A stretch of DNA of 64,000 nt from Bacteroidetes bacterium GWF2_38_335 (GTDB taxonomy: Bacteria > Bacteroidota > Bacteroidia > Bacteroidales > GWF2-38-335): assembly GCA_001769535.1 (NCBI GenBank), contig MEOH01000019.1, positions 65,787 to 129,786 of the forward strand. Direction: 5' to 3'. How positions within the stretch are numbered: the stretch's first letter is position 1; each line of letters begins with the position of its first letter. The notes under the pieces are model-generated. The model was not told the DNA's origin. It worked only from the letters and a program-made list of their open reading frames with translations, and did no database searches. The translations under genes were made by a program, and so were the position numbers. Below are positions 12,253-62,400 of this stretch, piece after piece.

Positions 12253-12256
12253 TCAA

Positions 12257-21162: not shown

Positions 21163-21199
21163 ATCATCTGGTTTGTTGGAAGGATAAAAATAGTGAAAA

Positions 21200-25266: not shown

Positions 25267-25269
25267 AAT

Positions 25270-38165: not shown

Positions 38166-38508
38166 GGTTGATGGGTTGATAGGTTGATAGGTGGAAGGGT
38201 GGTATGAGGTATGAGGTATGATGTATCATGTATCATGTATGAGGTATTTTCAACCCATAACCCATAACCTATAACTCATAACCCATAACCTCCCATCCAT
38301 TTCCGCCGGAATAGTATTTTTTGGTTCTAATAAGTAAACGGCCGGCGGTTTTGTTCATATTTTTTATTACCCCGGCCGTTAGCCGGGGCTGAATTTAGCT
38401 GGCCTTTCAGGCCGTTAGTTCATCAGGATTTAAGAACATTAACCCATCACTTATAACCCATCACTCATAACCCATAACTCATAACCTATAACTCATAACT
38501 CATAACCT
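38166..38508. repeat. composite structured repeat, copy A: heptamer arrays flanking a ~150-nt three-hairpin core
   Basis: The element runs in this order. First, GGTTGAT-type units (38166-38189), GGTATGA/CATGTAT units (38200-38246) and ATAACCC-type units (38252-38291). Then the core, with hairpins ccgccgg...ccggcgg (38303-38348), ccccggc-cgtta-gccgggg (38370-38388) and ggcct-ttc-aggcc (38401-38413). Last, ATAACCC/ATAACTC units (38441-38508). It is the inverted counterpart of 58939-59256. Confidence 0.85.
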
Positions 38509-43575: not shown

Positions 43576-43602
43576 TTTATTATGAAAATATAATTTAGTC
43601 AA

Positions 43603-45270: not shown

Positions 45271-48200
45271 ATGAAACGTATTATTTTCTTATTTTTTCTT
45301 TCTTTTTTCGTTTGGGTTTCATACTCCCAAAACCCCGTTCTGGTTCCCCAGGAGGGATTTCTTGGAACTGTTACCAATATTGCTTACAGTCAGGATGGCC
45401 GATATCTGGCCTCTTGTGGTAAAGGCGATCCTGCCATTAAAATTTGGGAGGTTGCAACGAATAAAATGTGTGGGAAACTTGAAGGACATACCGATCTTGT
45501 TACCGCGCTCTGTTTTAGTCCCGACGGCAAATTCCTCGCCAGCGGCAGCAAAGACAATCTGGTGATTCTCTGGGATCTGACAAAATGGGAATTGTCAAAA
45601 AAATATTCAGGTCACTTAAAAGAAATTACGGCTGTTTGCTTTTCGGGTGATGGCAATTTTGTTGTGAGCGCAAGCAATGATAAAACAGTCAAAGTATGGA
45701 ATATAAGTGAAGTTAAGGAAAAATTCACCCTGACGGAGCATAAAAATGATGTCACCGTGGTTGCTGTGAGCTCAGATAATAAATATCTTGTCAGTGGATC
45801 TGATGACAACAGTCTGATAGTTTGGGATTTCCAATCAGGAACCCTGCTTAAAAAAATCAAAGCTCAGAAAAAAAGAATTACCTCACTGGCCTTTTTACCC
45901 AATAACACGGCATTTCTTTCATCTTCGATGGATAAAACCATAAAACTTTGGGATGTGGTTTCGGGTACAGCCGTCAAAGAATATGCTGCAGCTTCAGGAA
46001 TTGTAAATATGTCAGTTGAAAGCAGCGGAAAAAGCTTTTTTACTGTTGATAAAGAAAATGTTATTCAAGTCTGGGATGTTGGTCTGGGATCTGTTATTGC
46101 AACAATCAATAAAAAGGAGGATGAAAAGGCAAAGGATGATGAGGAACCTATAAAAGCACTGGCTTGCAATCCGAATGGTTTATATTTTGCTACAGCCGGT
46201 TACAGTAAAAATATTTTTGGAAAAATAAGTTCAGACGAAAATGCAATCAAAATATGGGATGTAAAATCAAACACATTATTTAAAACTATTAATGGTGAAG
46301 TGTTTCCTGTGCATAATTTGTGCTTTAGTCCCGCAGGAAACATTCTGGCTTCTATGACCAAAAACCGGCTTTTTGTTTGGGATGTGGTAAATGCCGAGTA
46401 TATTGCCGGAATTGAATTTGCTGAACCGCAGGAAAAGAAGTCGGGCGGACTGTTATCCAAAACTGCCGATGCGCTGGAAGGTGTCAAATATACCTACAGA
46501 ATAGAATTTACACAGAATGGTGAATACCTTGTTGTAAAATCGCCCGATGATAATACCGGTTTGAAGGTGTATCATTTTTCAGACAATCAGCTTAAGCTCA
46601 ATAATGTTATTATGTGCAACAATCTGGGTTATAAGCCTGCAAATGCCACATCGCTCTATAATCCACTGTCAAAACGCAAGGATTATCCTGTTCATGATTT
46701 TGCACTCTTTCCGGATAGTAATTACGTGGCCGTTGGAACCACCGGTGATACAGCCGTAGTCATTTTTAACCTGCTCAATGGTAGTATTTTTAAGATGCTC
46801 GAAACACCCACCGAAAAAAATATCAAAAGTCAATCTTCAACAACCGGTCAGTTTAATAAAGATAAAGTTATTGCAATTACTTTCAGTCCTGACGGCAAAT
46901 ACCTTGCAGGTGCCTTTGAAAGCGGACCAATTTATGTTTGGGAAACAGAGTCGTGGAATCTGCTTTTTGTTCAGCTGGACAACATACTTTCAAGTGGTTT
47001 AAGCAATACCACTTATATTGGAAATGCTTTCTTTGAATTCAGTAAGGATGGAAAAACACTGTATTACGGAAGACGGGAAGATGTTTGGGTTTTTAGTTAT
47101 GCTGATTCAGGACCCTGGCCCTTTAAAAAGATCAAAGGAGGTTCAGATATAACTACATTATTGAGTACCGAAAAAACACTTGCCGGAAAGCTTGACCGGT
47201 CTGTTTGTTTGTACGAAAATGAATCATCAAAAATAATGGGCAGCCATGATGCGAAGGTCACAGCCCTTGCTTTTGACCAGAAATCGGGATTGCTTGCCAG
47301 TGCCGGTGATGACGGTAAAATTAAAGTATGGGATCCCGTTACCGGCAAAGAAGTTTTCAGTGTCCTCAACAGCCAGTCGGGTGATTACGTGTTTGTCACT
47401 CCCGATCATTATTACAAAGCATCCAAAAAAGGTCTTGACCTGGTAACCTATCGGGTGGGAAAAGAAATTTATCCATTTGAGCAATTTGATTTGCAGTACA
47501 ACCGACCGGGAATTATTCTGGAAAGAGCAAAAAATCCCGATTTGGATAAAATTACTGCTTATCATTCGGCGTATGCCAAAAGGTTAAAAAAGCTCAAGAT
47601 GGATGAAAAAATGTTTGGTTCTGATATGCAGATTCCCCAGTTATCAATCCTTAACAGAAATGAAATACCTTACACCTGGACTGCCGACACGCTCAAAGTA
47701 AAAGTAAAATGCGCTGATGCAAAATATCAGCTTGAACGGTTGAATATATTCATAAATAATGTTCCCATTTATGGAGTGGGCGGGTTGTCTTTGAAAGAAA
47801 GCAAGTCGCAGACCGATGAAAGAGCAATACAAATTCCAATGGCCGCCGGAAAAAACATCATCCGTTTTTCATGTCATAACCAGAAAGGCGCCGAGTCATT
47901 GATGGAAACAATTGAATTGACCTACGAACCAAAAGAAAAAAAGAAGCCCGATTTGTATATTGTGACAATAGGAGCATCTGTATATTCCGACAAAAGATTT
48001 AACCTCACCTATGCCTCAAAGGATGCCAAAGATATGGCCGAATTGTTTAAAACCAGCCCGGTTTATGGCAATGTTTTCACCAAAACCCTTACAGATAATG
48101 AAGTCACAAAAGTCAACATACAAAAGGTCAAAGCTTTTCTTGAAAAAGCAGGAAGAGATGATGTGGTGATTCTGTTTATTGCAGGCCATGGATTATTAGA

Positions 48201-48765
48201 CACCAAAATGGATTATTATTTTGGAACCAGTGATATTGATTTCAACAATCCCTCGGTTAAAGGAATGGAATACGCAGCCATTGAAGCTTTGCTTGACGGT
48301 TTAAAAGCCCTGAAAAAACTATTATTTATGGATACCTGTCACAGCGGTGAACTTGATAAGGATGAGGTTGAAACGGCATCTCAAGAAACAGCTGAGACCG
48401 GAGATATATCTTTCAGAAATGCAGGAGCCGGTGTAAGAAAAAAAGAAGGGTTCGGAATGAAAAATACCAGTGACCTGATGAAGGAATTATTTACCGATCT
48501 CAGAAAGGGAACAGGTTCGACAGTTATTTCGAGTGCCGGAGGCGCAGAGTTTGCCATGGAAAGCGGTGAGTGGAAAAATGGATTGTTTACCTTTTGTCTC
48601 AAAGAAGCATTGACTTCAAAAAAAGCTGATTTGAATAACGATGGCAGCATCACAATTTCCGAATTGCAGCAATATGTTCAGGAAAGAGTTGTTGAGCTTT
48701 CAAAGGGAAAGCAGCAGCCAACTTCAAGGATTGAAAACCTGATTCTGGATTTTAATATCTGGTAG
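45271..48765 (+). CDS. exported WD40-repeat protein with C-terminal caspase (Peptidase C14) domain
   Basis: Signal peptide MKRIIFLFFLSFFVWVSYSQ. Many WD40 units (GHTDLVTALCFSPDGKFLASGSKDNLVILWD, HDAKVTALAFDQKSGLLASAGDDGKIKVWD). Caspase domain (LYIVTIGASVYSD...VVILFIAGHGLLD...LLFMDTCHSGE). Confidence 0.9.
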   Translation: MKRIIFLFFLSFFVWVSYSQNPVLVPQEGFLGTVTNIAYSQDGRYLASCGKGDPAIKIWEVATNKMCGKLEGHTDLVTALCFSPDGKFLASGSKDNLVILWDLTKWELSKKYSGHLKEITAVCFSGDGNFVVSASNDKTVKVWNISEVKEKFTLTEHKNDVTVVAVSSDNKYLVSGSDDNSLIVWDFQSGTLLKKIKAQKKRITSLAFLPNNTAFLSSSMDKTIKLWDVVSGTAVKEYAAASGIVNMSVESSGKSFFTVDKENVIQVWDVGLGSVIATINKKEDEKAKDDEEPIKALACNPNGLYFATAGYSKNIFGKISSDENAIKIWDVKSNTLFKTINGEVFPVHNLCFSPAGNILASMTKNRLFVWDVVNAEYIAGIEFAEPQEKKSGGLLSKTADALEGVKYTYRIEFTQNGEYLVVKSPDDNTGLKVYHFSDNQLKLNNVIMCNNLGYKPANATSLYNPLSKRKDYPVHDFALFPDSNYVAVGTTGDTAVVIFNLLNGSIFKMLETPTEKNIKSQSSTTGQFNKDKVIAITFSPDGKYLAGAFESGPIYVWETESWNLLFVQLDNILSSGLSNTTYIGNAFFEFSKDGKTLYYGRREDVWVFSYADSGPWPFKKIKGGSDITTLLSTEKTLAGKLDRSVCLYENESSKIMGSHDAKVTALAFDQKSGLLASAGDDGKIKVWDPVTGKEVFSVLNSQSGDYVFVTPDHYYKASKKGLDLVTYRVGKEIYPFEQFDLQYNRPGIILERAKNPDLDKITAYHSAYAKRLKKLKMDEKMFGSDMQIPQLSILNRNEIPYTWTADTLKVKVKCADAKYQLERLNIFINNVPIYGVGGLSLKESKSQTDERAIQIPMAAGKNIIRFSCHNQKGAESLMETIELTYEPKEKKKPDLYIVTIGASVYSDKRFNLTYASKDAKDMAELFKTSPVYGNVFTKTLTDNEVTKVNIQKVKAFLEKAGRDDVVILFIAGHGLLDTKMDYYFGTSDIDFNNPSVKGMEYAAIEALLDGLKALKKLLFMDTCHSGELDKDEVETASQETAETGDISFRNAGAGVRKKEGFGMKNTSDLMKELFTDLRKGTGSTVISSAGGAEFAMESGEWKNGLFTFCLKEALTSKKADLNNDGSITISELQQYVQERVVELSKGKQQPTSRIENLILDFNIW

Positions 48766-48869
48766 TTAAGAATAGCAGAAAAATCGATAATTTATTGAAA
48801 TATAGATTTATAATTATGCTTTACGCAAACTAAGTGCAAGGTTTTAATTATATTTTTTCATTTTTCTTG

Positions 48870-49055
48870 TAATGGAAACTTGTTTTCATTTCCGCCGCAA
48901 AAAGCATCACATTTCTGAATATCTTTTTGGGCGGCGGTTTTTTCTATTCATACTCTTTGTAGTAATTGAGTTTTCATAAACAAAAACGCCACCCTGAAAT
49001 AATTTAGAACCAAAAAAGCAATTGCGGCGGAAATGAAAAGTAGTTTCAATGTAAT
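48870..49055. repeat. third, diverged copy (C) of the structured repeat, arranged as an inverted pair
   Basis: Arms gtaatggaaacttgttttcatttccgccgcaa (48870-48900) and ttgcggcggaaatgaaaagtagtttcaatgtaat (49021-49055) are an imperfect inverted repeat. The right half shares the blocks TAAACAAAA, TTAGAACCAAAAAA and GCGGCGGAAATG with copy B (59113-59175). Confidence 0.7.
48892..48943 (+). terminator. terminator-like hairpin inside repeat C
   Basis: ccgccgcaaaaag ... ctttttgggcggcgg followed by TTTTTT. About 125 nt downstream of the WD40-caspase stop. Confidence 0.4.
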
Positions 49056-49241
49056 CGTGAACAAAAAAGGTACAGAGTATCATGATCCTCGAATTTTATT
49101 CGGGACGCAACCACTTTGAGTATTATTGTTTTTTGACTTAACCAGCCAAATAAATCAATTTTTCCGTTTACGTAACAATCTGCCCATGTTTTCCGTTTAT
49201 TTACAAATGCAGTAATTTTATCTGCTTAAAATTTAACCATT

Positions 49242-50105
49242 ATGAAAAAGACAATATATACCATTAGCTTAATATTGATATCAGTAATTACGGCTATATC
49301 TCAGGACATTACTTTCACAGAAAGCATGGACAAAGCTTTTGAAAGAGCAAAAAAAGAAAATAAAATAATATTTGTTGATGCCTATGCCACCTGGTGTGGC
49401 CCGTGTAAATACATGGCTAAAAATGTTTTTACTGTTGACTCGGTGGCAAAATTTTATAACACAAATTTCGTGTGCCTGAAAATTGATGTGGACATTGAAG
49501 AAGGGACTAAATTCATGAAAAACTATCCCGTTGCTGCCATGCCCACTTTTTTCTTTATTAAACCTACCGGAGAGGTGGTAAAAAAGGTTATGGGCGGAAT
49601 GGAAGCCGATAAATTCTATAATCTTGGAAAAGATGTGATCTATCCCGAACAGGCGATGGTTTATATCATGGGACAAAAATACAAATCGGGTAACCGCGAT
49701 AAAAGTTTTTTGGCCGAATATGCCCTGGAACTTCCCGAAGAGGATTCTTTGTTGAAAATTGTGATCAGTGAATATTTTAAAGATCAGCCGGTTTCATGTA
49801 TTGACTCAATCGATGGGTTTGCCGTTTTTTCATTGTGGACTGTAGGCATTGAATCGGAATTTGCCAAATATTTTGCCGGAAAATACGATGATTTTCTGCT
49901 TAGCTATGGAAAATATGCCCAAAACAAGCTAAACAGTATTATTATGGCAGAAATAGAATCAGCAACAGCTTTGAAAAATAAGTCGAGACTCGAAAACCTG
50001 TATAATTATCTCCAGCCTGTTTACCGCGATGACGAAGCAGGTTTTGCTGATATAAAAAGATTGATCGAACAAGCATACGAACAGGCTGTTAATAAGGAAA
50101 TGTAG
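49242..50105 (+). CDS. exported thioredoxin-fold protein (CGPC active site) with helical C-terminal extension
   Basis: Signal peptide (ISLILISVITAISQ) and a thioredoxin motif (FVDAYATWCGPCKYMAKNVF). Confidence 0.8.
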   Translation: MKKTIYTISLILISVITAISQDITFTESMDKAFERAKKENKIIFVDAYATWCGPCKYMAKNVFTVDSVAKFYNTNFVCLKIDVDIEEGTKFMKNYPVAAMPTFFFIKPTGEVVKKVMGGMEADKFYNLGKDVIYPEQAMVYIMGQKYKSGNRDKSFLAEYALELPEEDSLLKIVISEYFKDQPVSCIDSIDGFAVFSLWTVGIESEFAKYFAGKYDDFLLSYGKYAQNKLNSIIMAEIESATALKNKSRLENLYNYLQPVYRDDEAGFADIKRLIEQAYEQAVNKEM

Positions 50106-50165
50106 TTCCATTCCGAAAGAATTCCCGCATTATTATTCTTTTATGGTGCCAGATAATTATTCCGA

Positions 50166-50682
50166 CCGCAGGTCAGTTGCAATGTTATTTTTCCTGACTT
50201 AGTCAATGCCTAATTTTCACTTATTTATTATTTAAGACTTTGTTGTTTTTATTGTTTTTCTGTGAAGAAGTCAGCAAGGGCAAAGCCCTGGGATTGTAAG
50301 CGCGTAGGGTGAAATGAAATGCAACCCTATGCGTAATAAAAAATCCTATTTGAGATAAATGTGGAAAATATTTTTTTACACAGGGTTGCACTATGTTTCA
50401 CCCAGTGGTGATACAAATCGGTCTTTCAGACCTTTAAATTGTGTGGAGCAAGGGCAAAGCCCTGGGATTGTAAGCGCGTGGAGAAGACTGAAATGTAACT
50501 TTATATTTAAAAAGCTATTATATACTCAGGACTGCAATGTATTTTTCCCTTTTGTCTCGCTAGTGCACCTCCCATTTCCTAATTTAGTTTTATATATATT
50601 TGTTATTTAAGGCCTTGGTATTTTTAATGTTTTTGTGTGACGAAGTCAGGAGACCACAGGTCAGTTGCAATGGTTATTTTTG
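50166..50682. repeat. repeat-dense non-coding region (nested direct and inverted repeats)
   Basis: Direct pairs are X (50166-50192 / 50654-50682, caggtcagttgcaatg), Y (50229-50274 / 50604-50649, tatttaag...gaagtcag) and Z (50273-50305 / 50447-50479, agcaagggcaaagccctgggattgtaagcgcgt). There is an inverted pair, 50306-50328 / 50382-50403 (agggtgaaa..gcaaccct), and a hairpin ggtct-ttc-agacc at 50420-50432. Confidence 0.7.
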
Positions 50683-50739
50683 AATTAGTAAGTAGCTATT
50701 GAATCTTACAACCTTCTTTTGAACATTCAAAAAAAAACC

Positions 50740-50747
50740 TAACTTTG
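50740..50747 (+). promoter_or_regulatory. candidate -7 box (TAACTTTG) for the phosphatase-CHAT-CHAT operon
   Basis: Matches TAnnTTTG, 20 nt upstream of the ATG at 50768. Confidence 0.35.
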
Positions 50748-50767
50748 AATAGAAAAATTAATTGGAA

Positions 50768-53167
50768 ATGCACCGGATTTTATCTTTATTATTTTTGTTA
50801 GTTCTTTTTGCCATCGCTTCAGGCAAAAGCGAAAATATTGATTCTCTCTGGCGTGTATATGATAAGGCCGTTCATGATACTTTAAAAATTAAAATCCTGA
50901 ACGACGAAATAGGATCCTATTATCAGAGAAATAATCCCGACTCAGCAATTATCTGTTATCAGATGGCCTATGATATGGCATCAAAAGCTCTCGAAAAGAC
51001 TTCTAAAAAAGATGTCAGAGAAGCTCTTGAAATGGAAAAAATACTTGCAAACGCTTATTTGGGAGTGGTTAATTATGAAACAGGAAACAGTGAAAAATCC
51101 CTTAAATATTTATCCCTTGCAGTAAAAAATTCAAGAGACCTTTTAAAAACTATAAGCAATAAATATCAGGGAAAAATAAAGGTTATAATTGCCAGATCTT
51201 TAAATCAAATCGGAATGTCATATAAAGAACTTGGCAAATATGACAAGGCAATTGAAACGTATCAAAAATCCATTAAAGAAGCTGAAAAAATCAATGACAA
51301 ACTGATTATTTCTGATGTTAGAAGCAATATAGGATTGCTGCACCTGGATATGGGTGAGGTAATGAAGGCCATTGAATACTTTGAATTTGCAATTAAAATA
51401 AAGGAGAGCATTAAAGACATGCCCGGCTTGTCTAACTGTTATATCAATATGGGTATTGCACACCTCAGGATCAGCTATAATGACGATGGAAAACTTTCTG
51501 AAGAGGGTGTAAGGAAAGAACAGGATCTTGCACTTGATTTTTTTAAAAAATCCATCGAAATTGCTGAAAAAGTTGGAATGCAGTCAAATATTTCAAGTTT
51601 ATATGTCAATATGGGCATTGTCTATGGTAGCAGAAATGAATTTGAAAAATCTGAAGAATATTTCCTTAAAGCACTGAACCTGAATATTGAAATAGATTTC
51701 AAAGACGGCATTGCTGCCTGTTACGGTAACCTGGCCGCATTGAGTCAGATCATGGCCGAGTCGGTTGCACTTACCGAGGGACAAAAGAAAAAGTATCTTG
51801 AAAAAACTATCAATTACGGATTGCAATGCATGAAATATGCAAAGGAAATAAATTCTCTTGAACGTCAGATTTTTGCCTGTAGCACCCTTAAAACTGCCTA
51901 TGCTTCTGTAAATAATTATAAAGAGGCACTGTTTTATGCTAATGAATATCTGGAGTTGAATAAAAAAATATTCTCCGAGGATAAAACAAAAGCCATTGCA
52001 GATGCCGAGAAAAAATTCGAAACCGAAAAAAATAAACTGCTGATTGATAAACTTAATAAAGAAAAACAGCTTCAGGACTCCCAACTCAAGCTTGAACAGG
52101 AAGCATCGGAACAACAACGACTGATAAATTATTTCATCATCGCCGGTCTGATTCTTATATCCCTTTTTGCTTTTTTTATTGTTCAGCGACTCCGTATTAC
52201 CCGTAAACAAAAGAAAGTCATCGAAGTGCAAAAGGCTGTTGTGGATGAAAAAAATGTAATCCTTAACCAGCAAAACGAGGAAATAAGGGCGCAACGCGAC
52301 GAAATCGAGGCGCAGCGCGATGAAATTACCGCCCAACGCGATTTGGTTACCAATCAGAAGGAGCGCATTGAAGTCCAGAAAAAAGAAATCACCGATTCCA
52401 TTGTGTATGCAAAATATATTCAAACCGCCGTTTTACCAACCGGTGATTATGCAAAGGACATTCTGGGAGAGCACTTTATTTACTTTAATCCCAAAGATAT
52501 TGTTTCAGGCGATTTTTATTGGGCTACTAAAGTCGATAAATGGCTTGTTTTTACTGTTGCTGATTGCACCGGACATGGTGTTCCCGGAGCATTCATGAGC
52601 ATGCTGGGTGTTTCGTTCCTCAATGAAATTGTCAGGGAAAAAGAAGTAACCCTGGCAAATGAAATACTTGACCGGCTCAGAATGAAAATTATTGATGCCC
52701 TTAAACAAAAATCTCTCGGAGAAACCGACAACGGTTCGAAAAAAGCCGTATCAAGAATGAGAGATGGAATGGACATAGCCGTTTGCGTACTTAATATTGA
52801 TTCTTTACAACTTCAGTTTTCGGGAGCAAATAACGGTCTGTTTGTCGTTAAAACCGACAAATCCGTTTTTGATATTCCCGGCGATAAACAACCGGTAGCC
52901 ATTTATGAAAAAATGGTGCCTTTTACCAATCATGTGCTCGATTTGCAAACAGGCGACACCATTTACCTGAACACTGACGGTTTTACTGATCAGTTCGGGG
53001 GAGCAGAGAATAAAAAATTTATGACAAAAAGAATGAAGGAAATGTTTAAGGAAATTTCTTCACGCCCCATGTCCGAACAGCTTGTTTTTGTGAATAGTAC
53101 TTTTGAGAACTGGAAGGGAATTCGTGACCAGATTGATGATGTTACCGTTCTGGGTATTAGAATCTGA
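50768..53167 (+). CDS. TPR-sensor, single-TM, SpoIIE/PP2C-type phosphatase
   Basis: Signal peptide, about 8 TPR units and a TM helix (YFIIAGLILISLFAFFIV). Five heptads follow (AQRDEIE AQRDEIT AQRDLVT NQKERIE VQKKEIT). PP2C motifs are present (VSGDFYW...VADCTGHGVPGAFMSMLG...DGMDI...TDGFTDQFG...DDVTVLGIRI). The ORF track begins at TTG 50762, and the ATG at 50768 is equally possible. Confidence 0.85.
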   Translation: MHRILSLLFLLVLFAIASGKSENIDSLWRVYDKAVHDTLKIKILNDEIGSYYQRNNPDSAIICYQMAYDMASKALEKTSKKDVREALEMEKILANAYLGVVNYETGNSEKSLKYLSLAVKNSRDLLKTISNKYQGKIKVIIARSLNQIGMSYKELGKYDKAIETYQKSIKEAEKINDKLIISDVRSNIGLLHLDMGEVMKAIEYFEFAIKIKESIKDMPGLSNCYINMGIAHLRISYNDDGKLSEEGVRKEQDLALDFFKKSIEIAEKVGMQSNISSLYVNMGIVYGSRNEFEKSEEYFLKALNLNIEIDFKDGIAACYGNLAALSQIMAESVALTEGQKKKYLEKTINYGLQCMKYAKEINSLERQIFACSTLKTAYASVNNYKEALFYANEYLELNKKIFSEDKTKAIADAEKKFETEKNKLLIDKLNKEKQLQDSQLKLEQEASEQQRLINYFIIAGLILISLFAFFIVQRLRITRKQKKVIEVQKAVVDEKNVILNQQNEEIRAQRDEIEAQRDEITAQRDLVTNQKERIEVQKKEITDSIVYAKYIQTAVLPTGDYAKDILGEHFIYFNPKDIVSGDFYWATKVDKWLVFTVADCTGHGVPGAFMSMLGVSFLNEIVREKEVTLANEILDRLRMKIIDALKQKSLGETDNGSKKAVSRMRDGMDIAVCVLNIDSLQLQFSGANNGLFVVKTDKSVFDIPGDKQPVAIYEKMVPFTNHVLDLQTGDTIYLNTDGFTDQFGGAENKKFMTKRMKEMFKEISSRPMSEQLVFVNSTFENWKGIRDQIDDVTVLGIRI

Positions 53168-53179
53168 TAACCTGAAACT

Positions 53180-56086
53180 ATGAAAAAGCTAATATTATTT
53201 TTCCTGACTTTTATTATTACAGGACTTGTTTTTTCGCAAAGCAATTCCATTGTTGATTCCTTGTGGCGCAATTATAAAAATGCCTCCCATGATTCGGTGC
53301 GAATTGAAATTCTCATTGCAGATCTGGGCTATACCTTTGAAGGAATTAATCCGGATTCTGCTCTGATACTTTACAATAAAGCAATTGAGCTTGCTGATAA
53401 AAATATTGAATCTGCCCGAAAATCATCCGACAAAAAATCTGAACTGTTTTTTCTTGAAAAAAAAGCTGTGGCATTAAGATATTCAGGTATTGTTTACCGG
53501 ACTTTAAGCGATTATGAAACGGCTCTTTTTAATTACAAAAGATCAATAAACATCTACAAAGAACTGATACTTGAAAGCAGTGCGGGTAAACGCGAAGAAT
53601 ACAATGTCAATATTTCCGGAACCTATAATAATATTGGCTCCATTTACCGGAATCAGGGTGTTAATGACAAAGCAACTTTATACCTGCTGAAAGCTATAGC
53701 CAATTTTGAAATTACGGTTGATTCAGAAAACCAATCTGTGGCCAAAATGAGCGGATATGCTCTCGCCGGCGCATACAACAACGTGGCACTCATTTATAAC
53801 AATCAGGGAATATATGAAAAGGCAATAAAATATTTCGAAAAATCTCTGGAGATAAGAAAAAAAATGAGCGATGTTTATGGTATTGCCCAATCCTTAAGCA
53901 ATATGGCCATTTCAACTTTCCGGATGGCTGTGCTTGTCACAACTCCTGAATTAAAGACTGCCAGACTTAATGAATCGCTCCAGATGTATTTTACTGCCCT
54001 TTCATGCTATGATTCACTATTATCAGATCAGGCAAATATTAAAAATTTCAGATTGTTAAAACTTTCGAAAGCTGATTGTTTTGGAAATATTGGATTGTTA
54101 TACAAAACTAAAGGTGATGGTGATAACGCTCTTAAATATTTCAATGAAGCTATTAAAATCAGAGAGGAGTTGGGCGATAAAGTTGGTATCTGTGGCGAAA
54201 AATCAAATCTGGCTTCGTTGTATATCTCTATTCATGACCGGCTTAACCTTAACGAAAGCAATCTCATCAGAGGATATAAATATGCAGAGGAAGCACTTAA
54301 ACTTTCTGAAGAAATCGGACTAAAAGCCGAAATGAAAAGTGCGGTAAGAAATATGGCTATGATTTTGCAGGGATTGGGAAATTTTGAAAAAGCCCGGGAA
54401 TATTATTTTTCATTGAGTTCAATGAATTTTTCTGATATACTTACAAACTTTTCATTTATTACCGAAAAGGAAAAGGAACTGTTTTTCAGTATGGTATCCT
54501 CAGATTTTAACTTCTTCTATAATTTTGCACTGAGAAATCTGGGTTATAAACCCGATATTGCAGGTGATGTGTTTGATAATGTCATTCGTTCAAAGGGGCT
54601 GCTGCTCAAATCGTCCACAGCCATGCGTGCTGCCATTTTAAATAGTGGCGATGAAGTTTTAAAAAAAGATTATTATGATTGGACAGCCATTAAAAAATCA
54701 ATCATTCAAAACTATACCCTTGAACCTGAAAAAAGGGATAAAAATCTTGATAAATTGATTGAAAAGGCCGACAGTATTGAAAAAGTATTGGCTAAAAAAT
54801 CCTTTGAGTTCAGCGATTTCAATAATATTCAGAAAATTTCCTGGACAGATGTTAAAAAAAGTCTGAAGCCCGGTGAAGCCGCAATTGAGTTCGTTCATTT
54901 TAAATATGACCCTGTTAAAATAGTCGATTTGGAAGAAGTGAAATATTGTGCGCTTGTGCTTACAAGTGATTCGGAATATCCGGTTATGATTCCACTTTGC
55001 AATCAAAAACAGCTTCAGGATATACTGGGAATAGACGCTGAAAATGACATCAATTATATCAACAATATTTACGGTAAAAAGAATAATACCAGCCGACAAC
55101 TGTATAAACTGATTTGGAAGCCAATTGAAAGCAAACTAACCGGAATAAAAAGGGTGTATGTGTCGCCGAGCGGACTGTTACATAAAATTTCCCTTGCTGC
55201 GATTGCCGATGAAAATGGAATCTTTTTAAGCGATAAATTAGATTTAAGAATCAAAAGCAACACAGGAAATATTGCTTTAGAATCAACAGTTTCAGATGTT
55301 TTGTTCAGCGATGCGGAAATAACTGCGGCCGTTTTTGGCGGAATAGATTACAACCTCAAGGATTCGGTCCGGAAAATTGTTGAGTGGGAATATCTGGATG
55401 GTACAAAAAGAGAAAGTGAAAATATTACTAATTTGCTGACAGGTCAAAAAATAAACGTGAAATATTTTTCCGATAAATCAGCCACCGAAGAGCAATTCAA
55501 GATTATGGCTGCAAACTCTGATCTGTTGCATATTGCCACCCATGGATTCTTTTTTCCATCCCCAGAACAGTTAAGATTGGAAAGTGATACTGCCAATAAA
55601 ATCACTGAAGAAAAAGGTGATGTTGTGTTCAGGGGTGGCGCCAGGGGTTTTGGCGTTGCAGGGTTTGTTGAAAATGACAATCCGCTGATGAGGTCCGGAC
55701 TTGTGTTTGCCGGAGCAAATGAGGTTTGGAATGCAACTGAATCGGGCGAAAATGAAGATGGTGTTCTTACTGCCCAGGAGGTTATAAATATTGACATGCG
55801 CAAAACTTCCATGGTTGTTTTATCGGCATGTGAAACCGGACTTGGTGAAATTGTGGACTGCGAAGGGGTGTATGGATTACAACGGGCATTCAAAATGGCC
55901 GGTGTGAAATACATCGTAATGAGTCTGTGGCAGGTGCCCGATAAAGAAACCGTCGAGTTTATGACTCTTTTTTATTCCCGACTTTTAAAATTGAAAGACA
56001 TACAGCAGGCTTTTTCCGAAACCCAAAAGGAAATGCGAAAAAAATATGACCCGTATTTCTGGGGGGCTTTTGTCTTAGTTGAATAA
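53180..56086 (+). CDS. exported TPR-repeat CHAT-domain protein
   Basis: Signal peptide MKKLILFFLTFIITGLVFSQ, then TPRs. Conserved middle region (NFSFITEKEKELFF). CHAT His (LLHIATHGFFFPSP) and Cys (VVLSACETGLGE), and the tail KYDPYFWGAFVLVE. Starts 12 nt after the phosphatase gene. Confidence 0.9.
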   Translation: MKKLILFFLTFIITGLVFSQSNSIVDSLWRNYKNASHDSVRIEILIADLGYTFEGINPDSALILYNKAIELADKNIESARKSSDKKSELFFLEKKAVALRYSGIVYRTLSDYETALFNYKRSINIYKELILESSAGKREEYNVNISGTYNNIGSIYRNQGVNDKATLYLLKAIANFEITVDSENQSVAKMSGYALAGAYNNVALIYNNQGIYEKAIKYFEKSLEIRKKMSDVYGIAQSLSNMAISTFRMAVLVTTPELKTARLNESLQMYFTALSCYDSLLSDQANIKNFRLLKLSKADCFGNIGLLYKTKGDGDNALKYFNEAIKIREELGDKVGICGEKSNLASLYISIHDRLNLNESNLIRGYKYAEEALKLSEEIGLKAEMKSAVRNMAMILQGLGNFEKAREYYFSLSSMNFSDILTNFSFITEKEKELFFSMVSSDFNFFYNFALRNLGYKPDIAGDVFDNVIRSKGLLLKSSTAMRAAILNSGDEVLKKDYYDWTAIKKSIIQNYTLEPEKRDKNLDKLIEKADSIEKVLAKKSFEFSDFNNIQKISWTDVKKSLKPGEAAIEFVHFKYDPVKIVDLEEVKYCALVLTSDSEYPVMIPLCNQKQLQDILGIDAENDINYINNIYGKKNNTSRQLYKLIWKPIESKLTGIKRVYVSPSGLLHKISLAAIADENGIFLSDKLDLRIKSNTGNIALESTVSDVLFSDAEITAAVFGGIDYNLKDSVRKIVEWEYLDGTKRESENITNLLTGQKINVKYFSDKSATEEQFKIMAANSDLLHIATHGFFFPSPEQLRLESDTANKITEEKGDVVFRGGARGFGVAGFVENDNPLMRSGLVFAGANEVWNATESGENEDGVLTAQEVINIDMRKTSMVVLSACETGLGEIVDCEGVYGLQRAFKMAGVKYIVMSLWQVPDKETVEFMTLFYSRLLKLKDIQQAFSETQKEMRKKYDPYFWGAFVLVE

Positions 56087-56121
56087 GTATGTTCTCCGGA
56101 TTTATCTAATAAAATTTTAGT

Positions 56122-58938
56122 ATGAAGAATAAATATTTATTTCTGTTGATTTTACTGTCAGTCCAGTATTTTTCTTTTGCTCAGGAATGGCTTGAACAAG
56201 ACAATCTCCGGCAAAAACACCTTGAAAATGCACAATATGATTCAGCAGCAATTTTTGCAATAAATGTAAAGAATATTATAGAAAAGGAGTTTGGAACAAA
56301 AGACACGCTATATGGACAGGCATTAAACAATGAAGGATTTATTTACCTTTCGACCGGGGAATATGAAAAAGCCGAACCGCTTTTTGAAAAAGCAGTAAAG
56401 TGTTTTGAGGATAATAAAACTGAAAATGCCAAGGCCTACTCCTTTGCCCTTAGCAATATTGGAACCTTATATAACTGGACAAGCCGCTATGAAAAAGCCG
56501 AGAATGTTTTTCTTAAAGTGTTGGAAATCAGAAAAAAAACAGGAGAAAAAACACCTGAATATGCAACAGCTTTAAATAATCTCGGAAATATTTACAAGGA
56601 TGTTGGAAGATACAAAGAGTCAGAGGAATATTATTTAAAAGCCATAGAACTTAGAAAGGAATTATTCGGGGAAAAGGATTCTGAATATGGTGTGGCAATT
56701 AATAATCTGGCAATTTTATATGTCAATATGGGACAGTATGATAAAGGTGCAGAAATACTCCTTAAAGCAAGAGATATTTTTAAGGAAATTCCGGGAGAAG
56801 GTCAGGTAAAATATCTTACTGTCACTAACAATCTTGGAGCCATTTACTGGTCAATGGGTGATTTTATCAAAGCTGAACCCATGTTGGTTGATGTTGAGAT
56901 AAAATTAAAGGAAATAGTGGGTGAGGAGCATCCTAACCATATTACAGCAATTAACAACCTTGCAGTGCTTTATTCACATATCAATAAACTTGATCTGGCG
57001 ATAGAGTATAACCTTAAAGCACTTGCCTTGAGAGAAAAAACAATGGGAAAAACTAATTACGATTATAGTATTTCCCTAAATAATCTGGGCGCAAATTATT
57101 TGGATTTTTCCTTCGTTTGTGATACTCCATCCTGCAAAACTAAAGCCATACAAATGTCTAGGGATTATTATCTGGAAGCCGAACAAATCAGATTTAAATT
57201 GTTTGGACCGAAGCATCCTGATTATGACCTTATTCTGAAAAATCTGGCCAACACTTACCTCTATGAAGATGATTTGGCCGGGGCTGAAAAAATATATCTG
57301 AAATCAATGGACATTCTGAATTATAATATTCAGGAGAATTTTAGTTTTCTCTCTGAAAAAGAGAAGGAGCAGTTTTTTAAGATGAAATATGGTGACATTA
57401 AATCATTCTACTCATTTTCATATAAGTACAAGGATCAAAAACCAGAAATATCCACGCATGTTTACGACAATGTTTTAAAAAATAAGGGATTATTGCTTAA
57501 ATCATCAACTGCGATGCGTACGGCCATTGCTTCAAGTAATGATACCAGTTTGGTCAATGCATTTGACAAATGGATTGATCTTAAAAAGAAAATTGCCAAA
57601 CAATATTCTATCGCTGTTGATAAGCGCGATACAGATCCTGTATTGCTTGAAGAAGAAGCCAACCTTCTTGAAAAGGAGTTGGTTAAAAAGTCATCAATAA
57701 TTAGTGACTTTGATAAAAACAAAAATGTTACCTGGAAGGAAATCCGTAAATCATTAAAACCGGGTGAAGCAGCCATTGAGTTTATTCATTTTAATTTCTA
57801 TGATAAGCGGTGGACAGACTCGATCTTGTATTTGGCACTGATTGTAAAATCCGACAGCAAATATCCCGAAATGATTACCTTGTTTGAGGAAAAAACCCTG
57901 ACAGGCATTTTGAAGGAATTCGATGGTAATAATCTTAAATATGTCAATGGACTTTATGGAACAAATTCTGATCTGAAGGATGATCTTTATAATATTATTT
58001 GGAAGCCAATGGAAAACGCCTTAAAGGGAATATCAACAGTTTATTTGTCTCCTACCGGGTTGCTTCACAAAATATCCTTTGCATCTCTAAACAGTAGTAA
58101 AAATGTTTTGTTGTGCGATGTGATTGACATCAGAACGCAATCAAGTACAGCGAAAGTTGCAGTTCCCGAAATATTTTCGTTTGAAAAAAATATGACAGCA
58201 AGTATTTTTGGAGGAATAGATTATTCTGGTGAAACAGGCGAAACTGTATGGCAGTATCTTGAAGGAACCAAAACGGAAAGTGAAAAAATTCACAGTTTTC
58301 TTAAAGAAAAAAATATTAAAGTTTCAATGCTTTCGGAAAAAAATGCCACCGAATCAGAATTTAAGAAGATGGCGGCAAACAATAATTTATTGCACATTGC
58401 AACACATGGGTTTTTCTACCCTGATCCAAAAAATGTTAATAAAACAGATTCGTTGACACAGGAAACCGGTTCTGTTATTTTCAGGGGAGGAGAAAGAGGA
58501 GCCGGGGTTGAAAATTTTGTAAAAAATGAAAATCCATTGATGAGATCTGGTCTTGTATTTGCCGGAGCCAATGAAGTTTGGAGTGAGAAAAAAATAAGTA
58601 ATCTTGATGATGGAGTGCTTACTGCACAGGAAGTGTCGAATATTAATATGGGAAAAACCGGTTTGGTAGTACTGTCTGCATGTGAAACCGGACTGGGAGA
58701 TATTTCTGTAAATGACGGGGTTTATGGTTTACAGCGTGCTTTTAAAATTGCCGGCACAAAATTTATTGTCATGAGTTTATGGCAGGTGCCTGATAAGGAA
58801 ACTGAAGAATTTATGATTTCGTTTTATTCAAATTTCTTTAAATTAAAGAATATCAGAGAAGCTTTTTCCGAAACCCAAAAGGAAATGCGCAAAAAGTACG
58901 ACCCATATTTTTGGGGAGCGTTTGTACTTATTGAGTAG
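56122..58938 (+). CDS. exported TPR-repeat CHAT-domain protein
   Basis: Signal peptide MKNKYLFLLILLSVQYFSFAQ and KLC-type TPRs (YATALNNLGNIYKDVGRYKESEEYY). NFSFLSEKEKEQFF region. CHAT His (LLHIATHGFFYPDP) and Cys (VVLSACETGLGD), and the tail KYDPYFWGAFVLIE. Confidence 0.9.
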   Translation: MKNKYLFLLILLSVQYFSFAQEWLEQDNLRQKHLENAQYDSAAIFAINVKNIIEKEFGTKDTLYGQALNNEGFIYLSTGEYEKAEPLFEKAVKCFEDNKTENAKAYSFALSNIGTLYNWTSRYEKAENVFLKVLEIRKKTGEKTPEYATALNNLGNIYKDVGRYKESEEYYLKAIELRKELFGEKDSEYGVAINNLAILYVNMGQYDKGAEILLKARDIFKEIPGEGQVKYLTVTNNLGAIYWSMGDFIKAEPMLVDVEIKLKEIVGEEHPNHITAINNLAVLYSHINKLDLAIEYNLKALALREKTMGKTNYDYSISLNNLGANYLDFSFVCDTPSCKTKAIQMSRDYYLEAEQIRFKLFGPKHPDYDLILKNLANTYLYEDDLAGAEKIYLKSMDILNYNIQENFSFLSEKEKEQFFKMKYGDIKSFYSFSYKYKDQKPEISTHVYDNVLKNKGLLLKSSTAMRTAIASSNDTSLVNAFDKWIDLKKKIAKQYSIAVDKRDTDPVLLEEEANLLEKELVKKSSIISDFDKNKNVTWKEIRKSLKPGEAAIEFIHFNFYDKRWTDSILYLALIVKSDSKYPEMITLFEEKTLTGILKEFDGNNLKYVNGLYGTNSDLKDDLYNIIWKPMENALKGISTVYLSPTGLLHKISFASLNSSKNVLLCDVIDIRTQSSTAKVAVPEIFSFEKNMTASIFGGIDYSGETGETVWQYLEGTKTESEKIHSFLKEKNIKVSMLSEKNATESEFKKMAANNNLLHIATHGFFYPDPKNVNKTDSLTQETGSVIFRGGERGAGVENFVKNENPLMRSGLVFAGANEVWSEKKISNLDDGVLTAQEVSNINMGKTGLVVLSACETGLGDISVNDGVYGLQRAFKIAGTKFIVMSLWQVPDKETEEFMISFYSNFFKLKNIREAFSETQKEMRKKYDPYFWGAFVLIE

Positions 58939-59256
58939 GGGGTGGGTTATGGGTTATAGGTTATAAGTTATAGGTTATAAGTTATAAGTTATAAGTTATA
59001 AGTTATAAGTTATAAGTTATAAGTGATGGGTTAATGTTCTAAAATTCTGTTGAACTAACGGCCTGAAAGGCCAGCTAAATTCAGCCCCGGCTAACGGCCG
59101 GGGTAAAAAAAATGTAAACAAAACCGCCGGCCGTTTACTTATTAGAACCAAAAAATACTATTCCGGCGGAAATGGATGAGAGGTTATGGGTTATAGGTTA
59201 TAAGTTATGGGTTATCTCGAGTTGAAAAATACATCATACATCATACCTCATACAAC
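58939..59256. repeat. composite structured repeat, copy B (inverted partner of 38166-38508)
   Basis: 13 heptamer units lie at 58944-59034, including seven consecutive perfect AAGTTAT units. The core follows, with hairpins ggcct-gaa-aggcc (59060-59072), ccccggc-taacg-gccgggg and ccgccgg...ccggcgg. Then come 5 GGGTTAT-type units (59181-59215) and CATCATA/CCTCATA units (59231-59254). Confidence 0.85.
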
Positions 59257-59398
59257 CAATCCATGCTGTTCCAAGTTTACTCCCTTCGGTCATGAGAGAA
59301 GTTGCAACTAGGAACACATCTCGCTTAACAAGTTTGCAACTCGGAACCTATCCCTTTCTACAATACTCCATCCACCTCCACACTTAAAAACATTTTCC

Positions 59399-59406
59399 TA
59401 TATTTG
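59399..59406 (+). promoter_or_regulatory. candidate -7 box (TATATTTG)
   Basis: Matches TAnnTTTG, 12 nt upstream of the ATG at 59418. Confidence 0.35.
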
Positions 59407-59417
59407 CCACCTATTAT

Positions 59418-62400
59418 ATGAAAACTAAAACTGCATTTCTGTTGTTTTCCCTGTTCGCTGTAATTGCTTTAAATTCACAGCAAGTGCGCAGCTTTGATAA
59501 AAGTAACGGTCTTTCCCAAAGTATCATAAACTGTATTGAACAGGATGAAAATGGATTTATGTGGTTTGGCACTCAGGACGGACTGAATAGATATGATGCC
59601 TATTCTTTTATTGCCGTTAACTCCTTAAATGGTCTGGAAAATTCAAATATTAATTCTTCCCTTTTTGATGATCAGGGAAATTTTTGGGTTGGTACAGAAC
59701 AGGGACTTTTTAAGCGGGATAAAGGAAAAACACAATTCAAAAAAATTTCTTTCACAAAAAAAAGCAACATTCCTGTTGTTTCATTGTACCTTGATAATGA
59801 AAATAATCTATGGATTGGCACAAGGCAAAACGGTTTGTTCAGATACACTGTTTCATCAAAAAAATCAGTGTTTATTGCCTGCAAATTAACCGGTGATGAT
59901 GGAACAAAACAATCCATTCATTGTTTGCTCCAATATGAGAAATACATGTTGGCAGGTACTGATAGCGGACTTTTCAGGATTGAAATAAGTTCAGCCCGGA
60001 CCAAAAGGTTTCTTCCTCATAAAAGTATTGCCAAACCACCCTGGAGTACCCTCATTAATTGCATGGTTGCGGATGGTAAAAATGTTTGGCTGGGGACTTA
60101 TGGCGCCGGAATTTACAAATTCGACGGAAGTGAAGTAATCAGAGATCAGCAGTTGGCAAATGCAGTTTTTCTTTCTGAAGGGGTGATTAACTGCCTGACT
60201 CTAAGTAACTCCCGCGTGTTGTGGATTGGCACGCAGCAGGGACTGGCTTCTGTAAATCTTAATAATTCAGAAATAAAATATCCCTTGCCCATTCCTTTCG
60301 GAACCGAAGGTTCAGGAAATATCCGCAGTCTGTTTATCGACAGAGATGAAAATATCTGGGCAGGCGCCTGGGGTGCTTTATGGTTCATTCCGGGCAATCA
60401 AAAGCCTTTCGATATTTTTATTCCCAATCCTCAGCTCCCTTCAAATGATGCAGCAAATTCTGTTACTGCGCTGGCCGAAGATCTGAATGGAAAAATATGG
60501 ATTGGTACAGACAACGGCGGATTGATTTCTGATAAACATGAAAAGGCTGAATACATTACGTTCCCAACTATTATGGCAGTTGGAGTGGATGCGAAAAACC
60601 GGCTGTGGATTTCTCCCTGGGGAGATGGAATTTATGTTGGCAACAGCAGAGAAAACCTCTTTCAGATAAAAAATCCATTTCCCGAAAAAATTATCACCGA
60701 CAATGTGGTACGAAGTTTCTGTTTTTCGGGCGATTCGCTGGTCATAATTGGAACAGAAGAAGGGGTTGATTTGTATGATCTTAAAAATGACAGGTTGATA
60801 CCATCGCCCGAATGGGTTAAATCGCTTGCGAAAGGCAGGATTTCTTTTGTTTATTTAGATGTTTTCGGACTTTTATGGGTTGGAACTGCTGAAGGATTGA
60901 AAAAAATATCCCTTAAAAAATCTGAGAAGCTTGATTTTCCTGCTGAATCTGACAAGTTATTGCATAACCGGAATCTTAAAAGTTTTGTTCGCGACAAATA
61001 TGGAAAATACTGGGTTGGGACTTCGGGCGGATTGGTAATTCTGAGTAGCAAAGGTGAAATTCTGAAAAAACTGGACACCGATACCGGATTGCCAAACAAT
61101 GTGATTTATTCCGTAATTGAGGGAAACGACAATCAAATATGGTGCTCAACAAACAAGGGATTGGTACGGATTGATCCGGTGAATTACAAAATATCTGTTT
61201 TTAATAAAAACGATGGTTTGCCCGATGATGAATTCAATTCAGGAGCAGCCCTGAAATCAAAAGACGGAAAAATTTATTTTGGCAGTATTAAAGGTCTTTG
61301 TCATTTCGATCCTTTGAAAATACACGTTGACAGCACTGCTATTCCTGTTCACATAAGATCACTGAAAGTTTTTAATAAAGATTTGTTTCCTGAAAAGGAA
61401 GTGATTACAGGAGAATCTGTCACACTAAATTATTCAGATAAATTTATAACCATTGAATTTGGTGCGCTGTCTTTTGTCAACCCCGAAGAAATAAATTACG
61501 CATACCGGCTGGAGGGTTTCGACACAACATGGATCGAAAGCGGTACCATGCGAGTGGCTACCTACACCAATCTTGATCCCGGGACCTATACATTCACTGT
61601 CATTGCCTGCAACCACGATGGTGTGTGGAACCAGAAGGGCGCATCCATTACCATTGTTGTTACAACACCATTTTATCGAACCTGGACTTTCAGGTTTATT
61701 ATTCTGGCCTTTGCTTTTATTATTCTTATCTCAATAAATATGATCAGGATAAGAATGATTCGCAGACGCAACCGTGATCTGGCAAAGAAAGTTGTAGAGC
61801 GGACTGAAAACTACCGGGTTCAAAAGAAAAAAGCCGAAGAAGCTGGAGAGCAGCTCAGGCAGGAAATGATTGCCCGCAACAGGTTTTTCAATATCATGAC
61901 CCACGACATAAAAAATCCCGTATGGGGAATAGAAGAACTTGCCAGAGAGGCAGAAAGCAATCCACAAGCGGTTCAGAAACTGAAAACCACCACAACCGGA
62001 TTAAAAAAGCTGCTCGAAAATCTATTAACCTGGGCAAGTTTGCAGTCGGGCAGGGCAGCACCCCGTTTTGAAATCACCTCGGTTTTCGGAATGGCCGATG
62101 AAGCCATTGATAACACCGAAGCCCAGGCATCAGCAAAAAATATTAAAATATTAAACAATACAGATCCCGAAATTCTTGTTAATGTTGACAGACAGATGAT
62201 CATAGCGGTATTCCGCAATCTCATATCAAACGCGATAAAATTTTCTTTCCCCGGTTCTGAGGTAAATATTACCACAAAAACAGACAAAAACCTTGTTGAA
62301 ATATTTTTTACAGATAAAGGAACCGGAATGGAAAAAGAATATGTTGACCGGTTATTTTCCCTCGAGCACACAAATGTACGCAAGGGCACCGGAGATGAAA

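Follow-up and report, generated by a model that had tools for sequence, protein, structure and literature searches.

A candidate envelope-sensing gene trio in Bacteroidetes bacterium GWF2_38_335 places a SiaA-like sensor phosphatase next to two exported TPR-CHAT proteases

We analyzed three adjacent genes in a 64,000-nucleotide stretch of DNA from Bacteroidetes bacterium GWF2_38_335 (contig MEOH01000019.1, positions 65,787 to 129,786), hereafter the window, which matches a scaffold from a groundwater metagenome. The genes, which we call P1, P2, and P3, follow one another on the + strand in the open reading frame (ORF) listing (Table 1) and encode a 799-residue phosphatase with tetratricopeptide repeats (TPR), a transmembrane (TM) helix, and a PP2C domain, followed by two exported proteases of 968 and 938 residues in which a TPR arm precedes a caspase-fold CHAT domain. 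The reading that we put forward, and to which we assign an even chance of being correct, is that P1-P2-P3 constitute a single transcription unit of an envelope-sensing pathway in which the proteases act together with the sensor phosphatase. The layout of the genes, their topology signals, the identities of the domains, the catalytic residues, the homology of the modules, and the recurrence counts are observed, whereas cotranscription, the substrate class, and any functional coupling are inferred. A first-pass annotation of this DNA had already read the three genes as an operon in which one extracytoplasmic TPR input is wired in two ways, to a phosphatase and to a protease.

P1 has the topology of a FimS-type sensor: hydropathy, the positive-inside flank of the second helix, and the match to the FimS model define an N-terminal anchor, a periplasmic TPR array, a second TM helix, and a cytoplasmic transmitter. 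The periplasmic placement of the TPR region follows from the PP2C domain, which must be cytoplasmic. The membrane helix is connected to the PP2C domain by a coiled coil of six heptads. In an alignment with 20 relatives, the indels of this linker come in sevens, and compared with its closest homologues P1 itself carries exactly seven additional residues here, as expected for a signaling coiled coil. The PP2C domain matched Pfam SpoIIE (PF07228) with 64.2 bits over residues 595-800 (cutoff of 25), which makes P1 a member of the PPM/SpoIIE family, and all of the acidic and glycine motifs of that family (GDF/Y, DxxGHG, DGMD, xDG, and DD) are present. Residues D582, D599, G602, H603, G604, D666, D669, D737, D741, D790, and D791 are invariant in the same alignment, and from what is generally known of PPM enzymes we take the conserved motif residues to bind metal. 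The start codon used here (ATG, 50768) is the choice of the gene callers for the public contig, while a mechanical TTG start lies at 50762.

The type of phosphatase can be narrowed further. Residues 505-798 of P1 matched chain 6k4e_A of the PDB (E=4.6e-31), the PP2C domain of Pseudomonas aeruginosa SiaA (PMC7647112), and the NCBIfam SiaA model (NF038263) matched residues 500-799 with 178 bits through model positions 373-657, that is, linker and PP2C domain; given the equivalog cutoff of 700 bits, P1 is SiaA-like and not a SiaA orthologue. We sampled 80 loci around P1 relatives, with 1.0 Mb of flanking sequence (sample 1). In four of these loci (L009, L028, L037, and L071), a SiaC-family phosphoprotein (PF09345, 113 bits) and a SiaB-family kinase (NF038262, 249 bits) are encoded beside phosphatase genes; six SpoIIE genes in a row precede the SiaB/SiaC pair in L037, and a SiaB-like kinase domain is fused to the phosphatase in L028. 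Because P1 relatives adjoin SiaB/SiaC genes, the substrate of P1 is likely to be a SiaC-type phosphoprotein rather than a classical STAS protein. The first-pass annotation had noted that phosphatases of this type normally act on STAS proteins and had seen none of these in the window; the second part stands, as neither a STAS (PF01740) nor a SiaC domain was found by Pfam in the window ORFs scanned, and the first gives way to the SiaC class as the expected one. Three of the sampled loci (L037, 57-15605; L071, 4930-16309; L028, 9728-12957) combine 3 to 6 tandem SpoIIE sensor phosphatases with a lone kinase of the SiaB family and either one SiaC gene or two, which suggests a many-sensors-to-one-switch design in Bacteroidota.

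P2 and P3 are members of the Pfam CHAT family (PF12770, cutoff of 24), with 192 and 174 bits, respectively, and the His/Cys dyad is invariant in CHAT alignments (H788/C884 in P2 and H762/C854 in P3). Each starts with a signal peptide, which ends in SQ or AQ, and lacks any TM segment beyond it. The middle and CHAT regions of P3 are 53% identical to those of P2, and the two differ in their TPR arms, which we use to define type A (P2-like arm) and type B (P3-like arm, rich in TPR_12 and TPR_10, with 182 bits for Pfam TPR_12) CHAT proteins. Identity among the C-terminal halves of CHAT proteins from different genomes is uniform, at 45-56%, without clustering by genome. A region of ∼200 residues that separates the TPR arm from the Pfam CHAT domain (residues 420-636 of P2 and 400-620 of P3) is common to all sampled CHAT proteins, carries motifs such as NFSFLSEKEKE and NKGLLLKSSTAMR, and is covered by no Pfam model or solved structure; a PDB sequence search with the middle and CHAT regions of P2 returned no relative. 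Markers of type IX secretion in the window, which confirm that it comes from a member of the Bacteroidota, are three proteins ending in a Por_Secre_tail domain and two small GldM third-domain proteins (18009-19193, 24280-26532, and 42961-44265). Since the CHAT and caspase proteins carry no type IX C-terminal domain, they are probably periplasmic and not surface exposed.

The link between P1 and P2 that is visible in their sequences is the TPR module. BLASTP gave a single colinear high-scoring segment pair (HSP) between residues 4-404 of P1 and 5-419 of P2 (25% identity, E=6e-25), and only several out-of-register HSPs with E values around 1e-6 between P1 and P3. In the N-terminal cap, 22 of 48 positions (46%) are identical and the Smith-Waterman score is 119 versus 21 ± 4.3 for 20,000 shuffles (maximum of 51); with the four remaining TPR proteins of the window, the P1 cap reached scores of 32, 46, 30, and 50. 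A cap hidden Markov model (HMM) built from SpoIIE proteins alone matched P2 (57 bits, i-E of 2.4e-16). With hhalign, the SpoIIE family aligned with type A CHAT proteins from column 1 (E=4e-75, 24% identity) and with type B, P3-like CHAT proteins from column 57 only (E=3e-36, 16% identity). From these comparisons we conclude that the TPR modules of P1 and P2 are colinear homologues and share more than generic TPR composition, so that the alignment made by eye in the first-pass annotation withstands pairwise and profile testing. The two wirings are equally apparent, through a TM helix and heptad linker to a PP2C domain in P1 and, behind a signal peptide only, by direct fusion to CHAT in P2.

The same module is used well beyond these two proteins. 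Its cap, with the pattern DSL...D(T/S)...PDSA, is conserved in most members of the TPR-TM-SpoIIE family, and cap and TPR array together are also found on a TPR histidine kinase, on adenylate cyclases, on a LytS-type kinase, and on a hybrid histidine kinase/AraC protein. The module is seen with at least five output types. When the TPR arm of P2 was used as a query, the best 120 matches included 25 SpoIIE, 19 histidine kinase, 14 cyclase, and 1 GGDEF protein and no CHAT protein; as receptors and not proteases are its nearest matches, P2 looks like a protease onto which a sensor arm of the receptor type has been grafted. P2 is not alone in this, since at least 10 further type A CHAT proteins are present in the sampled loci. 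An origin of P2 by recent duplication of, or recombination with, its neighbors was considered and ruled out, as there is no reciprocal best match with P1 and the CHAT halves do not cluster by genome. In two CHAT proteins (L096, 7194-10370; L097, 8284-11565), the repeats behind a type A cap are of the TPR_12-like type B, and these mosaics point to recombination within TPR arms. The window encodes two other TPR membrane sensors (10237-12973 and 19354-21246), one a TPR-TM-HisKA_2 kinase that precedes a LytTR response regulator and the other a TPR-TM-LuxR/GerE protein, both of which lack the DSLW cap (Smith-Waterman scores of 30 and 50 against the P1 cap).

The arrangement of the genes is consistent with a single transcript. 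The intergenic gaps are as short and as free of hairpins as the first-pass annotation had them, and across both of them RNA folding was no better than for shuffled sequences. A candidate Bacteroidota-type promoter, with the box TAACTTTG ending 20 nt ahead of the P1 ATG and a TTTG upstream, may drive P1. The TAnnTTTG pattern is not enriched in the window (67 occurrences versus 86 expected), so a bare match carries little meaning and its placement tells more: a box lies 11 to 39 nt ahead of the start codon in eight window genes that are first of their unit and preceded by gaps of at least 119 nt, and only two genes with short upstream gaps have one, the gene at 12257 (7 nt ahead of it) and P2 (74 nt ahead of it). 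The + strand has no TAnnTTTG between 54520 and 58203, which leaves P3 without a box over 1.6 kb upstream. Downstream of P3 there is a 479-nt spacer, and the next gene has its own box (59399-59406). Given the promoter-like site ahead of P1, the short unstructured gaps, this spacer, and the separate box of the next gene, one transcript from ∼50752 to past 58938 is the simplest reading, and the three genes are probably cotranscribed. The operon claim thus remains plausible; the earlier claim of a single promoter box holds for TAACTTTG, which has gained an upstream TTTG, and is weakened by a looser match, TACTTTTG (53098-53105), inside the 3' end of P1.

Both ends of the unit have sequence features of their own. 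The hairpin at 59084-59104 is not followed by a T-run, so it is at most a putative terminator. It sits in a GC-rich segment bracketed by two arrays of a GTTATAA/GGTTATRG heptamer, one of ∼10 copies just past the P3 stop codon (58945-59033) and a shorter one ∼150 nt further on (59183-59216); the region 58945-59216 could be either a small insertion or a site of transcription termination. The 662-nt spacer ahead of P1 (50106-50761) contains, besides a 25-nt inverted repeat, direct repeats of three families (67, 53, and 29 nt) with 81-86% identity, and a 27-nt core, GGGCAAAGCCCTGGGATTGTAAGCGCG, that within the window is found only in this spacer. An Rfam search of 48700-59500 gave nothing close to gathering scores, and no match for the spacer. 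A scan for sigma-70 promoters and intrinsic terminators returned counts at the level of shuffled sequence and, being unsuited to Bacteroidota, was not used.

A second neighborhood in the window brings together the same kinds of protein with a different sensor domain. It starts with orf265, whose model (pLDDT of 91.5) has two β-sandwich domains and a helical bundle and for which a fold search gave generic Ig-like matches only (query-normalized TM-score of at most 0.22). Immediately downstream is a phosphatase with a β-propeller/Y_Y_Y sensor, a TM helix, and a SiaA-like PP2C domain, whose linker and PP2C domain are 43% identical to those of P1, AQRDEI heptads included. A third exported TPR-CHAT protease is encoded 3 kb downstream, convergent with the orf265/Y_Y_Y-SpoIIE unit and separated from it by a GH97 gene. 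An exported WD40-caspase lies between this neighborhood and P1; it matched the NCBIfam caspase, EACC1-associated type, model with 78 bits, below the cutoff of 140, and its relatives adjoin orf265 in L164, L165, and L167. Downstream of the WD40-caspase gene, 49242-50105 encodes an exported, thioredoxin-like protein that has a WCGPC motif and, as a matter of speculation, could keep periplasmic cysteine proteases reduced.

This association recurs. Three loci that had been selected for CHAT (L088, L092, and L100) carry, in this order, CHAT, orf265, and a propeller sensor; since the contigs of L088 and L100 end within the sensor next to orf265, the PP2C domain is confirmed in L092 only. We then used nine loci chosen through orf265 homologues alone and checked them by tblastn. 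A C14 caspase lies immediately upstream of orf265 in L163, and the order is WD40-caspase, orf265, and Y_Y_Y-SpoIIE in L164. L165 has orf265, a convergent WD40-caspase, and a Y_Y_Y-cyclase, and L167 has Y_Y_Y-SpoIIE and orf265, with a WD40-caspase 6 kb further. L169 and L170 have orf265, Y_Y_Y-SpoIIE, and a convergent CHAT gene, the layout of the window minus GH97; orf265 stands alone in L166, L168, and L171. A caspase-fold protease is therefore found within 9 kb in six of the nine loci, and protease and phosphatase together in four. An association found independently, with a different sensor domain and with interchangeable protease types, is our best evidence for a functional link between protease and phosphatase, to which it lends moderate support. 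On these counts the orf265 neighborhood is better conserved than the P1-P2-P3 pairing, and orf265, Y_Y_Y-SpoIIE, and a caspase-fold protease (CHAT, C14, or WD40-caspase) look like a candidate three-component module.

The proposed pathway can be outlined as follows. P1 would act as a FimS-like periplasmic TPR sensor connected, via one TM helix and the six-heptad coiled coil, to a SiaA-type PP2C domain, and binding of a periplasmic ligand would alter its phosphatase activity. The ligand would probably be a peptide or a protein, which are the usual ligands of TPR arrays. The target of P1 would be a phosphorylated switch protein of the SiaC family, with SiaC and a SiaB-type kinase presumably encoded elsewhere in the genome. 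P2 and P3 would be exported to the compartment that P1 senses, as caspase-fold proteases with a TPR arm before the common middle and CHAT regions, a receptor-type module in P2 and a different, kinesin-light-chain-like TPR array in P3. They would take part in the P1 pathway, either by making or removing the periplasmic ligand or by answering the same cue.

Several observations weigh against this reading. A CHAT gene is present in only two of the 80 loci of sample 1. L007 has the order CHAT (- strand), TPR-SpoIIE, type B CHAT, TPR-SpoIIE, and type A CHAT, with gaps of 18 and 20 nt within the pairs, and in L081 a TPR-SpoIIE gene is followed by a type B CHAT gene after 103 nt. The closest relatives of P1, P0002 (45% identity, L084) and the one in L004 (41%), have no CHAT neighbor. 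Conversely, among 77 CHAT-centered metagenome loci with 0.68 Mb of flanks (sample 2), a SpoIIE ORF was counted by HMM in only two, L092 and L089, the latter a weak, unrelated match 7 kb away; two more of these loci, L088 and L100, have the propeller sensor cut off by the contig end next to orf265. No TPR-SpoIIE gene is present in four type A CHAT loci whose upstream sequence spans 7 kb or more (L085, L089, L096, and L097). Both families have many paralogues in these genomes, so chance should produce some adjacency. Neither SiaB nor SiaC genes were found within the window by tblastn or Pfam, which would fit a hub encoded once per genome. A second box match, TACTTTTG, lies 74 nt ahead of the P2 ATG, but no TTTG is present upstream of it at a comparable spacing. 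Finally, the modules of P1 and P2 share only 25% identity and do not form a reciprocal best match, the P1 ectodomain being nearer to proteins of another genome (L007_b, 7e-44; L007_a, 4e-39) than to P2 (3e-24). With this identity, and with P1 and P2 not each other's closest relatives, a common ligand or a hetero-oligomer cannot be deduced, and the earlier suggestion of either finds no support in so widespread a module. Even so, tight same-strand pairing in three independent configurations appears to be more than we would expect by chance, without correction for copy number. The earlier expectation that the adjacency would return in other genomes was thus borne out, in rare cases, and we found no description of the arrangement in the literature searched on CHAT with SpoIIE and TPR or on partner switching in Bacteroidetes.

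The most serious alternative is that the genes are neighbors without a shared pathway, in an island rich in paralogues; P1 and P2 would then resemble each other through common descent of a promiscuous, shuffled TPR module, and they could still be cotranscribed. We regard this as quite possible, though somewhat improbable. It would account for a window that holds three CHAT proteins, one WD40-caspase, two SpoIIE phosphatases, a TPR histidine kinase, a TPR-LuxR protein, and a propeller histidine kinase, and it agrees with the variety of outputs carried by the TPR module, with the mosaic arms of L096 and L097, and with the absence of the adjacency around most relatives of either gene. By a rough estimate, the frequency of SpoIIE in the CHAT-centered loci is also about that which copy number alone could give. 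It explains less well why tight pairs of SpoIIE then CHAT on the same strand arose repeatedly and with differing CHAT types (L007 b-c, L007 d-e, L081, and the window), and why another class of phosphatase recurs with CHAT or C14 proteases through orf265. The coupling of envelope proteolysis to cytoplasmic dephosphorylation, as proposed in the first-pass annotation, stays plausible, with moderate comparative support from the second neighborhood and a patchy distribution.

A more specific possibility is that the protease gates the receptor, an exported CHAT protein cleaving the periplasmic domain of the phosphatase or an accessory such as orf265 and so switching it on or off, as in site-1 cleavage in regulated proteolysis or in the cutting of Csx30 by Craspase. 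The products would share one compartment and probably one expression unit, and the recurrence of the neighborhoods with varying sensor domains fits action on a class of receptors and not on a specific ligand. The association is patchy, however, and the model does not explain why the TPR arms of P1 and P2 are homologous; we consider gating of this kind distinctly improbable. A conflict or defense system, in which the caspase-fold proteases are cell death or anti-invader effectors regulated by the phosphatase, is very improbable: such systems are where architectures like TPR-CHAT and WD40-caspase are typically met (TPR/WD40-caspase and type III-E TPR-CHAT) and the WD40-caspase weakly matches the PADLOC caspase and NCBIfam caspase, EACC1-associated type, models, but a signal peptide is present in each of the four proteases, which would be exported, the window contains no NTPase, Cas, or other defense protein, and PADLOC gave only generic TPR matches for P1-P3 and assigned no system.

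Returning to a pathway shared by the phosphatase and its proteases, we know of no role assigned to exported CHAT/caspase-like proteases, which are common in environmental Bacteroidota, and of no established input for SiaABC-type partner switches. If the proteases and SiaA-like phosphatases cooperate, these neighborhoods offer candidates for both sides, the protease substrate or ligand and the receptor, and a sensor module would have been reused to direct a protease. A broader version, which we think unlikely, would make exported caspase-fold proteases (TPR-CHAT, WD40-caspase, and C14) in some Bacteroidota the periplasmic input layer of SiaA-type phosphatases that feed a SiaB/SiaC switch, with the protease generating, destroying, or processing the signal or the receptor ectodomain, sometimes with orf265 as a third partner; if true, this would be a protease-gated partner-switch pathway of a kind not described so far. 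If the genes are mere neighbors, the locus would be a case of ordinary domain shuffling in a sensor-rich genome.

Table 1. Features of the P1-P2-P3 locus and of the second neighborhood (positions in the window)
Feature	Position	Strand	Remarks
orf265	31343-32140	+	exported; no Pfam or NCBIfam family; 87 homologues
β-propeller/Y_Y_Y-TM-SiaA-like PP2C phosphatase	32179-35487	+	38 nt after orf265
Third exported TPR-CHAT protease	38507-42601	-	1364 aa; Pfam CHAT 192 bits; signal peptide
Exported WD40-caspase	45271-48765	+	1164 aa; 2 kb upstream of P1; Pfam WD40; signal peptide; FIAGHG / DTCHSG dyad motifs
Candidate Bacteroidota-type promoter	50718-50747	+	TTTG 50718-50721, 18-nt spacer, TAACTTTG 50740-50747
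P1	50768-53167	+	799 aa; TPR-TM-PP2C phosphatase
P1 signal or TM1 segment	50768-50824	+	aa 1-19; hydropathy
P1 periplasmic cap and TPR array	50825-52123	+	aa 20-452; cap aa 24-71 (50837-50980); Pfam TPR families
P1 TM helix	52124-52180	+	aa 453-471; hydropathy; followed by RLRITRKQKK, positive-inside flank
P1 heptad coiled coil	about 52217-52402	+	I/V at aa 506, 513, 520, 527, 534, 541
P1 SiaA-like PP2C domain	52394-53164	+	aa 543-799; Pfam, PDB, and NCBIfam matches
P1/P2 intergenic gap	53168-53179	+	12 nt, read directly; fold z -0.48
P2	53180-56086	+	968 aa; exported type A TPR-CHAT protease
P2 signal peptide		+	aa 1-20; sequence signals, hydropathy
P2 cap	53252-53395	+	aa 25-72; cap HMM
P2 sensor-type TPR array	53240-54436	+	to aa 419
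P2 conserved middle region	54437-55087	+	aa 420-636
P2 CHAT domain	55088-56083	+	aa 637-968; H788 (55541-55543), C884 (55829-55831)
P2/P3 intergenic gap	56087-56121	+	35 nt, read directly; fold z -0.71
P3	56122-58938	+	938 aa; exported type B TPR-CHAT protease; signal peptide ends FSFA/Q (cleavage at the slash)
P3 CHAT dyad	58405-58407, 58681-58683	+	H762, C854; invariant in alignment
P3 3' boundary	58953-59104	+	GTTATAA x10 tandem repeat 58953-59024, then GC-rich hairpin 59084-59104 (hairpin region z -3.1)

Compared with known systems, P2 and P3 resemble Csx29 of the type III-E Craspase in having a TPR arm followed by a caspase-fold CHAT domain with a His/Cys dyad. They differ from it in their signal peptides and, for P2, in a TPR arm of the membrane-receptor type, and the window ORFs contain no Cas domain, no Cas7-11/gRAMP, and no CRISPR gene, which sets them apart from Craspase. 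P1 belongs to the same PPM/SpoIIE family (PF07228) as the RsbU/SpoIIE-STAS phosphatases of Bacillus, which act on a small phospho-switch protein; here the input is extracytoplasmic, no STAS protein accompanies P1 in the window, and the neighbors of its relatives belong to the SiaC family (PF09345). SiaC, a family separate from STAS, has been described as structurally similar to anti-sigma-factor antagonists (PMC7647112).

In FimS of Porphyromonas gingivalis, two TM helices enclose a periplasmic sensor of multiple TPRs whose signal is not known (PMC11053733). P1 has the same layout of TM1, multi-TPR sensor, and TM2, and the NCBIfam FimS model (NF053520) matched P1 (residues 7-234, model positions 9-216) and P2 with 57 and 55 bits; with 57 bits against a cutoff of 600, P1 shares the module and is not a FimS orthologue. 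The outputs also differ, FimS being a histidine kinase, whereas the module leads to PP2C in P1 and is fused to an exported CHAT domain without a second TM helix in P2. The closest parallel for the output is SiaA, which like P1 is a membrane-anchored PP2C phosphatase, and relatives of P1 adjoin SiaB/SiaC genes. In place of the input region of SiaA, P1 has a periplasmic TPR array of ∼430 residues, and unlike the SiaABCD system it has no siaB, siaC, or siaD nearby, its Bacteroidota relatives forming arrays of phosphatases at one SiaB/SiaC pair (L037 and L071).

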